Positions 1 to 1,192 of a stretch of DNA of 1,192 nt are shown one piece after another. Every line of letters starts with the position of its first letter. Positions within the stretch are counted from its first letter, which is position 1. Below the pieces are notes generated by a model. That model was not told the DNA's origin and made no database searches. It saw only the letters and a list, made by a program, of their open reading frames with translations. A program made the translations under genes and the position numbers. The DNA is from a phage, in sequence record OR846218.1, one strand, 5' to 3'.

Positions 1-77
1 AAATCTCCCGGAATAAGATTACACATCTTAGCTACAATATGAACTAACGTAGCATATGATGCAATATTAAATGGAAG
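1..77 (-). CDS. td: thymidylate synthase, exon 2 (5' portion only; CDS continues past window start)
   Basis: Minus-strand codons from 77 downward read CTT CCA TTT AAT ATT GCA TCA TAT GCT ACG TTA GTT CAT ATT GTA GCT AAG ATG TGT AAT CTT ATT CCG GGA GAT = LPFNIASYATLVHIVAKMCNLIPGD. This matches the conserved thymidylate synthase segment (E. coli ThyA ...LGLPFNIASYALLVHMMAQ...). The frame is continuous with exon 1 once 78..1093 is removed. No ORF-track entry because the fragment is short and lacks a start. Confidence 0.86.
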
Positions 78-224
78 CACTATGTTCAGATAAGGTCGTT
101 AATCTTACCCCGGAATTATATCCAGCTGCATGTCACCATGCAGATCAGACTATATCTCCAACTTGTTAAAGCAAGTTGTCTATCGTTTCGAGTCACTTGA
201 CCCTACTCCCCAAAGGGATAGTCG
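78..224 (-). ncRNA. 3' ribozyme segment of the group I intron (P6 3' strands, P7-P9 region, terminal G)
   Basis: Minus strand CGACTATCCCTTTGGGGAGTAGGGTCAAGTGACTCGAAACGATAGACAACTTGCTTTAACAAGTTGGAGATATAGTCTGATCTGCATGGTGACATGCAGCTGGATATAATTCCGGGGTAAGATTAACGACCTTATCTGAACATAGTG. It contains a 7-bp hairpin CAACTTG/CAAGTTG (159..178) and a 7-bp hairpin CTGCATG/CATGCAG with a GUGA tetraloop (126..143). It ends in G at position 78 immediately before exon 2. Confidence 0.8.
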
Positions 225-962
225 TTAGGCATTTATGTAGAACCAATTCCATTTATCAGATTTTACACGATAAGTAACTAATCCAGACGAAATTTTAAAA
301 TGTCTAGCTGCATCTGCTGCACAATCAAAAATAACCCCATCACATGAAATCTTTTTAATATTACTAGGCTTTTTACCTTTCATCTTTTCTGATATTTTAG
401 ATTTAGTTATGTCTGAATGCTTATGATTAAAGAATGAATTATTTTCACCTGAACGATTTCTGCATTTACTACAAGTATAAGCAGAAGTTTGTATGCGAAC
501 ACCGCACTTACAAAACTTATGGGTTTCTGGATTCCAACGCCCGTTTTTACTTCCGGGTTTACTGTAAAGAGCTTTCCGACCATCAGGTCCAAGTTTAAGC
601 ATCTTAGCTTTAACAGTTTCAGAACGTTTCTTAATAATTTCTTCTTTTAATGGATGCGTAGAACATGTATCACCAAACGTTGCATCAGCAATATTGTATC
701 CATTAATTTTAGAATTAAGCTCTTTAATCCAAAAATTTTCTCGTTCAATAATCAAATCTTTCTCATATGGAATTTCTTCCAAAATAGAACATTCAAACAC
801 ATTACCATGTTTGTTAAAAGACCTCTGAAGCTTTATAGAAGAATGGCATCCTTTTTCTAAATCTTTAAAATGCCTCTTCCATCTCTTTTCAAAATCTTTA
901 GCACTTCCTACATATACTTTATTGTTTAAAGTATTTTTAATCTGATAAATTCCGCTTTTCAT
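225..962 (-). CDS. I-TevI: Intron-encoded GIY-YIG homing endonuclease I-TevI (245 aa)
   Basis: ORF-track entry 225..962 (-), ATG at 962..960, TAA at 227..225. Protein starts MKSGIYQIKNTLNNKVYVGS (GIY at 4-6, YVG at 17-19) and has R27, E75 and N90 in the expected catalytic positions. A Cys4 zinc finger lies at C151/C153/C164/C167 (FCKCGVRIQTSAYTCSKC), followed by a C-terminal DNA-binding region. As far as I can recall, this matches phage T4 I-TevI over its full length. A GAGG Shine-Dalgarno lies 5 nt upstream of the ATG. Confidence 0.97.
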   Translation of the reverse strand: MKSGIYQIKNTLNNKVYVGSAKDFEKRWKRHFKDLEKGCHSSIKLQRSFNKHGNVFECSILEEIPYEKDLIIERENFWIKELNSKINGYNIADATFGDTCSTHPLKEEIIKKRSETVKAKMLKLGPDGRKALYSKPGSKNGRWNPETHKFCKCGVRIQTSAYTCSKCRNRSGENNSFFNHKHSDITKSKISEKMKGKKPSNIKKISCDGVIFDCAADAARHFKISSGLVTYRVKSDKWNWFYINA

Positions 963-990
963 AAATACCTCTTTAAATATAGAAGTATTT
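963..990 (-). promoter_or_regulatory. I-TevI translation-initiation region: Shine-Dalgarno (GAGG, 971..968) sequestered in a 10-bp hairpin
   Basis: Minus strand 990..963 is AAATACTTCT ATATTTAA AGAGGTATTT, followed by ATG. The two arms pair over 10 bp (9 Watson-Crick plus one U.G) around an 8-nt loop, burying the SD. This agrees with the published model in which I-TevI is translated only from late transcripts that start inside the intron and lack the 5' arm. Confidence 0.55.
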
Positions 991-1000
991 ATTAAAGGGC
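984..1000 (-). promoter_or_regulatory. T4 late-promoter-like element (AATAAATA, 993..986) and overlapping I-TevI operator-like sequence
   Basis: Minus strand 1000..984 is GCCCTTTAATAAATACT. AATAAATA is one mismatch from the T4 late promoter consensus TATAAATA. A start about 6-8 nt downstream would fall inside the hairpin, removing its 5' arm. The same stretch (CCCTTTAATA) resembles the exon-2 I-TevI binding sequence (CCATTTAATA, 74..65), as expected for the published autorepressor operator. Confidence 0.4.
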
Positions 1001-1093
1001 AGTCCTACAATTTAGCACGGGATTGTCTACTAGAGAGGTTCCCCGTTTAGATAGATTACAAGTATAAGTCACCTTATACTCAGGCCTCAATTA

Positions 1094-1192
1094 ACCCAAG
1101 AAAACATCTACTGATCGTTGATACCACTGCAAATCCAAATAGCCATTACGCACATTAAACTGATAGAACATATGACAAGGCGGTAATGCCAT
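1094..1192 (-). CDS. td: thymidylate synthase, exon 1 (3' portion only; CDS continues past window end)
   Basis: Minus strand from 1192 reads 33 in-frame codons: [37 protein letters not shown] holds the thymidylate synthase active-site cysteine (codon TGT at 1177..1175), and the segment aligns with E. coli ThyA DMALAPCHAFFQFYV...LYQRSCDVFLG. The exon ends at a codon boundary at 1094 and is followed immediately by intron TAA. Confidence 0.9.

Follow-up and report, generated by a model that had tools for sequence, protein, structure and literature searches.

A silent variant beside the I-TevI cleavage motif in the intron-split td homing site of a T4-related phage

Introduction

The locus described here raises the question of whether a phage sequence closely resembling the upstream half of the I-TevI homing site is still a target of that endonuclease, why it is kept, and whether the single base by which it departs from the T4 site matters to the enzyme. 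As a monomer, I-TevI recognizes a site of 38 bp: the DNA-binding domain is wrapped around 20 bp centered on the intron insertion site, and cleavage by the catalytic domain falls 23 and 25 bases upstream of that site, where CNNNG is preferred (PMC2988022). The role of the CNNNG motif in cleavage has been addressed in several studies (PMC2988022, PMC4065259, PMC5009752).

The DNA analyzed, hereafter the window, is a stretch of 1,192 nucleotides from phage record OR846218.1, and all coordinates refer to it unless stated otherwise. An earlier note on this DNA had described the end of exon 1 as a retained I-TevI cleavage-site region carrying an apparent silent difference from the T4 target.

Organization of the td locus

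The window comprises the following features, all of them on the minus strand:

1094..1192 (-): 3' end of td exon 1, 33 codons (Pfam PF00303, E = 7e-12; aligned to T4 td 451-549)
1116..1120 (-): CAACG at -27..-23, cleavage motif (CNNNG) of the I-TevI homing site (direct reading; same as T4)
1115 (-): position -22, A here and C in T4; wobble base of an Arg codon and first base of the 'DNA spacer'
1094..1100 (-): exon bases -7..-1, CTTGGGT, P1 partner of the guide sequence GGCCTGAG (fold and Rfam alignment)
78..1093 (-): td group I intron, 1016 nt (3 substitutions and a 1-base indel relative to the T4 intron)
225..962 (-): I-TevI homing endonuclease gene, 245 aa plus stop, inside the intron (Pfam domains; protein identical to that of T4)
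1..77 (-): start of td exon 2, 77 bases, LPFNIASYATLVHIVAKMCNLIPGD (alignment with T4)

Exon 1 ends at 1094 (position -1) and the intron begins at 1093 with TAATTGAGGCC, which places -22 at 1115, the G of the motif (-23) at 1116 and its C (-27) at 1120. Read on the minus strand from 1120 to 1094, the last 27 bases of exon 1 are CAACGATCAGTAGATGTTTTCTTGGGT, exactly as they had been transcribed before, and the CNNNG motif is intact, with C1120 and G1116 at the same positions as in T4.

The translation of the spliced exons is identical at 58/58 residues to T4 thymidylate synthase (1TIS residues 151-208) and contains the active-site segment of the enzyme, including the catalytic cysteine and the YQRS arginine (PF00303; 1TIS identity). 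It aligns with residues 141-198 of the E. coli enzyme, so that C6 and R26 of the translation fall on residues 146 and 166; we take C146 to be the catalytic cysteine and R166, the Arg of YQRS, to be the dUMP-binding arginine. Around the cleavage motif the reading frame is TGG TAT CAA CGA TCA GTA GAT (W Y Q R S V D): CAACG takes in the whole Gln codon plus bases 1 and 2 of the Arg codon, the critical C(-27) being base 1 of the Gln codon and the critical G(-23) base 2 of the Arg codon. The base right after the motif, A at 1115, is the third base of that Arg codon; CGA in the window and CGC in T4 both encode arginine, in agreement with the synonymous change proposed earlier.

The open reading frame within the intron encodes a protein identical to T4 I-TevI, with a GIY-YIG domain (PF01541), a zinc finger (PF22635) and a C-terminal DNA-binding domain (PF20987) in Pfam, and matches to PDB entries 1I3J, 1T2T, 1MK0 and 1LN0. 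An Rfam hit to the plant snoRNA R66 (snoR66) at 422-496 on the plus strand, antisense within this frame, scored 20 bits against a gathering threshold of 43 (E = 0.32) and was dismissed as a chance match.

The intron has the hallmarks of the T4-type td intron: insertion after the GGT (Gly) of ...VDVFLG, U at the 5' splice site and a terminal G. With a slash marking each junction, it is bounded, as in T4, by GGGT/TAATTGAGG and ...ATAGTG/CTTCC. Against the Rfam group I model RF00028 its 3' half scores 42.5 bits and stays short of the gathering score of 50, since the match is interrupted by the 738-nt ORF in the P6 loop; the otherwise near-identical ORF-less intron of phage Shinka reaches 66.9 bits. 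In both the minimum-energy fold and the Rfam alignment of the near-identical Shinka intron, CUUGGGUU pairs with the guide sequence GGCCUGAG to form P1, to which the exon contributes -7..-1 (CUUGGGU). The folded segment (1068-1104) has an energy of -7.3 kcal/mol and z = -1.25, weakly better than shuffles, and the case for the predicted P1 pairing comes mainly from homology to the T4 intron.

Natural ORF-less td introns share the insertion site and ribozyme core of the window and, unlike the window, have the I-TevI gene deleted or truncated. They were found in three lengths, with deletions given in window coordinates on the minus strand:

320 nt: Shinka (1600-1919 of the Shinka locus), C2-3, PYps55T, MLP2, UPWr_E2, 101112UKE3-1; deletion relative to window 203-898 (-)
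262 nt: PD112, CE1, 215Ecol030PP; deletion relative to window 193-946 (-)
445 nt: FL18, G28; deletion relative to window 321-890 (-)

Shinka-type exons are identical to those of the window at 176/176 bases. Loss of the endonuclease gene from the intron is a known decay stage of the homing-endonuclease cycle.

A homing site in two halves

The CNNNG motif lies at the position expected of an I-TevI homing site, and the 27-base segment matches the T4 site at 26/27 bases; the start of exon 2 carries the downstream half of the primary binding region. An uninterrupted primary binding region of ~20 bp is absent, however, as 1016 nt of intron (1093..78) lie between the exons. Judged by its sequence, the window thus holds the two halves of a homing site and would be no live target, because the intron separates the two halves of the primary binding region. 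The description of the cleavage-site region as retained holds for the motif and the surrounding sequence, which are present, but does not extend to a preserved target.

The motif by itself is uninformative: the window contains 25 CNNNG matches, compared with 33 expected from shuffles. What stands above chance is the near-identity (26/27) to the characterized T4 site, which reflects homology.

Comparison with T4 and the nearest relatives

The T4 reference (NC_000866) was fetched and aligned with the window. It reads CAACGCTCAG at this point, as the earlier note had given it, and within the 27 bases the only difference is A in place of C at 1115, inside the endonuclease footprint as defined by the 38-bp homing site (PMC2988022). 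The T4 td locus, with the CAACGCTCAGTAGATG substrate known from I-TevI and Tev-nuclease publications, has the same gene, the same intron insertion point and the same CAACG at -27..-23, and its I-TevI protein and thymidylate synthase residues are those of the window; it differs in having C at -22, silent differences at +3, +6 and +18 of exon 2, and an intron of 1017 nt.

Over the whole window, nine substitutions and one 1-base indel separate the two phages, which bears out the assignment of the source to a relative of T4 and excludes the T4 reference itself. Besides 1115, the substitutions lie at 831 in I-TevI (silent), at 145 and 80 in the intron, and at 75, 72, 60, 9 and 6 in exon 2; those in exon 2 are all silent, since the exon protein is identical to that of T4. 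Three of them, 75, 72 and 60 (+3, +6 and +18), fall within the primary binding region of I-TevI, in its downstream half; there the window agrees with the intronless phage T2H, and the silent changes of T4 are private to it.

The indel is an extra T in T4 at about window 1001-1002, upstream of the I-TevI start (GGACTTGCCC in T4, GGACTGCCC in the window). The intron length of 1016 nt is shared by six other full-length introns, namely those of a48, PYPS2T, T6, U5, ECML-134 and one IMG/VR contig. The site of the extra T lies just upstream of the TTTAATAAATAC region, which we take, following the literature, to be the I-TevI late promoter and operator. At 145, in the intron between P7 and P9, the A of the window is C in T4, ECML-134 and PD112; the Rfam consensus near this point (uaauc) fits the GAUC of the window, against GCUC in T4. 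A td-specific description of the P9.0 and P10 pairings was looked for in the literature and none was found, and positions 80 and 145 were assigned no structural role.

Among 50,697 phage records (August 2025 phage collection), the best matches to the window are 99.9% identical, none is completely identical, and all come from Tequatrovirus phages. The td locus of Escherichia phage a48 (OQ067375) is identical at 1191/1192 bases, the sole difference being at 136 in the P9 loop (G here, A in a48), and that of the Yersinia phage PYPS2T / fPS-90 group is likewise identical at 1191/1192, differing only at 80, the third-from-last intron base. Both a48 and the PYPS2T group agree with the window in having A at -22, at the end of exon 1 as a whole and throughout exon 2.

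At position 80 the minus strand of the window reads ...ACATAGTG/CTT, as opposed to ACATAATG/CTT in other full-length and ORF-less introns, and only a48 has the same G among the 50,697 phage records. This G turns an in-frame ATG at the end of the intron into GTG; the annotated start of the exon 2 CDS is later in a48 than in PYPS2T. A scan of IMG/VR for the 19-mer around G80 gave no match, and its four matches in metagenomes all lay in unrelated sequence and were discarded as chance hits.

In ECML-134 and U5, the central part of the I-TevI ORF (equivalent to window 543-624) contains a shared block of ~20 substitutions, and both phages have C at -22. The block suggests a distinct I-TevI variant that may have been recombined into otherwise similar introns.

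Allele survey at position -22

The base at -22 was surveyed in other phage td exon 1 sequences. A scan of IMG/VR for TATCAACGNTCAGTAGATGT yielded just 4 contigs and could not serve as a survey, and a variant-specific megablast was employed instead: 49-mers were searched against the 50,697 phage records, with every 28-base seed forced to include -22. The search returned 179 records with A, 63 with T, 24 with C and none with G; these counts cover only records with an exact 28-mer around -22, include duplicates (GenBank and RefSeq copies, many T4 laboratory stocks) and do not represent natural frequencies. Some fifteen alleles were read in their entirety. The intronless T2H locus was compared by anchored extraction, and a gapped local alignment with a cheap gap-extension penalty was discarded as a meaningless scatter of blocks.

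The alleles are distributed among intron-bearing and intronless td genes as follows:

A, intron-bearing: T6, RB3, RB7, RB10, PST, ACG-C40, PYPS2T, a48; intronless: T2, T2H, SV76
T, intron-bearing: SG1, Lutter, PD112, CE1; intronless: SH7, UFV05, PP01
C, intron-bearing: T4 and its laboratory stocks, RB55, RB59, FL18, 215Ecol030PP, VEc20, U5, ECML-134, SCS4; intronless: none among the records checked

Most of the C records are T4 stocks. Among the records found, A appears as the common allele and the C of T4 as the rare one, and exon 2 follows the same pattern, with the bases of the window common and those of T4 at +3, +6 and +18 unusual. By these counts, A at -22 would show merely that the source is not T4 or its closest kin, because the window has the majority allele and T4 the minority one.

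Intronless T2 and T2H (AY262132) represent a natural unoccupied homing site and carry CAACGA at -27..-22, as the window does. The first 27 bases of exon 2 in T2H are identical to those of the window; T2H differs in having no intron and in synonymous changes at -7..-3, reading TTTTTCTTGGT where the window has TTTTCTTGGGT. This contrast between allele kinds is general among the alleles read: -8..-1 (window 1094-1101) is TTCTTGGGT and invariant in every intron-bearing allele, whereas intronless alleles show synonymous changes at -7..-3 (TTTCTTGGT, TTCCTCGGT, TTTCTCGGC). The pattern fits a constraint from P1 pairing, co-conversion with the intron, or both.

Interpretation of the segment and of the -22 base

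The reading that we favor is that the 27 bases are the end of td exon 1 in a Tequatrovirus carrying the td group I intron and the I-TevI gene. In an intronless copy of td, the same bases would form the upstream half of the I-TevI homing site and be cut at CAACG; in the window they would be part of a split site that is no longer a target. The segment would be kept for coding, as it encodes a 10-residue stretch of the thymidylate synthase active site with the Arg aligned to E. coli R166, and for splicing, as its last seven bases are predicted to pair with the intron guide sequence and form P1. The A at -22 would be neutral, occupying the wobble position of the Arg codon and representing the most frequent allele in close relatives. 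On the double-strand-break repair model, each homing event should also transfer bases -22..-1 from the donor, as they are located between the cut site and the intron. We put the probability of this explanation as a whole, that of a split non-target site at the end of td exon 1 kept for coding and P1 and bearing a neutral A at -22, at roughly 0.93.

Whether -22 matters to I-TevI can be judged from published substitution and mapping data. In a Tev-TALE fusion, all 45 single substitutions of the 15-bp spacer were assayed and mean activity was lowered only at positions 2, 6 and 8; the list does not include spacer position 1, which corresponds to -22, and cleavage of natural phage td sites was also observed (PMC4065259). 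Cleavage mapping with Tev fusions found T or A to be preferred two bases after the G, with no preference reported for the base in between (PMC12663268). In the window, the former of these two bases is T and is conserved. The results on tolerance were obtained with I-TevI fusion nucleases, in yeast and in vitro, as opposed to the native enzyme acting on the modified DNA of phages. Mutational analysis of the homing site reportedly goes back to Bryk et al. 1993.

The C at -22 in T4 creates a second, overlapping CNNNG motif, CTCAG (-22..-18; window 1111-1115), which is also a DdeI site and is missing from the A allele. CTCAG has been named as a possible alternative cleavage site (PMC5009752), and as a DdeI site it serves in Tev-nuclease editing assays (Tev-nuclease literature). 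With -22 inside the 38-bp homing site and adjoining the critical G(-23), the loss of this motif could be taken to mean that A at -22 is an adaptive change that lowers cleavage, a resistance or immunity mutation in the target. We rejected this reading as very unlikely: the allele in the window is already occupied by the intron, its binding site is split and protection would be unneeded; A occurs in intron-bearing and intronless alleles alike; the substitution scan recorded no loss at spacer position 1 and the mapping no base preference directly after the G (PMC4065259, PMC12663268); and the primary CAACG motif is intact. That the source is really T4 and the A at 1115 a sequencing or assembly error is less credible still, and we consider it negligible. 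It could draw on there being only a single differing base within the 27-nt segment, but eight more substitutions and one indel distinguish the same 1192 bases from T4, and A at -22 recurs in the 179 other records, T6, RB3 and T2 among them.

A reading with more in its favor, although it remains improbable, is that the -22 base marks the lineage of the intron: A, C and T would have been co-converted at homing and would denote separately spreading td-intron lineages in place of drift in the host gene. The donor copying of -22..-1 expected under the repair model would predict this (PMC2988022), C was found only in intron-bearing alleles among the records, and -8..-1 is invariant with the intron and variable without it. 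Yet A and T are also common in intronless alleles, which makes -22 indistinguishable from ordinary exon polymorphism, and the haplotypes are mosaic: C at -22 is combined in U5 with the bases of the window at 145, +3 and +6, and in FL18 with A at 145. The comparison on which this lineage reading draws comprises the fifteen or so fully read alleles. If it were true, the laboratory allele of T4 would represent a rare lineage, and decades of I-TevI biochemistry would have relied on a substrate (C at -22, CTCAG and the T4-specific bases at +3, +6 and +18) that is unrepresentative of natural sites. An ordinary polymorphism in the host gene remains our preferred account of the -22 base.

Conclusions

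What the earlier note observed and how it interpreted the change are correct, and the feature is a textbook td intron / I-TevI locus in a relative of T4. The A at -22 is a common, silent and probably neutral polymorphism; the variant is ordinary and belongs to already known biology. Its value is mainly one of bookkeeping, in that it identifies the window as coming from a T4 relative with the classic td intron and I-TevI. For work on the endonuclease, it implies that the 'native' T4 site of the I-TevI and Tev-nuclease studies represents a minority allele, both at -22 and over the first 18 bases of exon 2. The absence of the adjacent CTCAG from the common natural allele is relevant wherever the T4 site is used as a model of the natural target, or DdeI-loss assays are applied to other phages.
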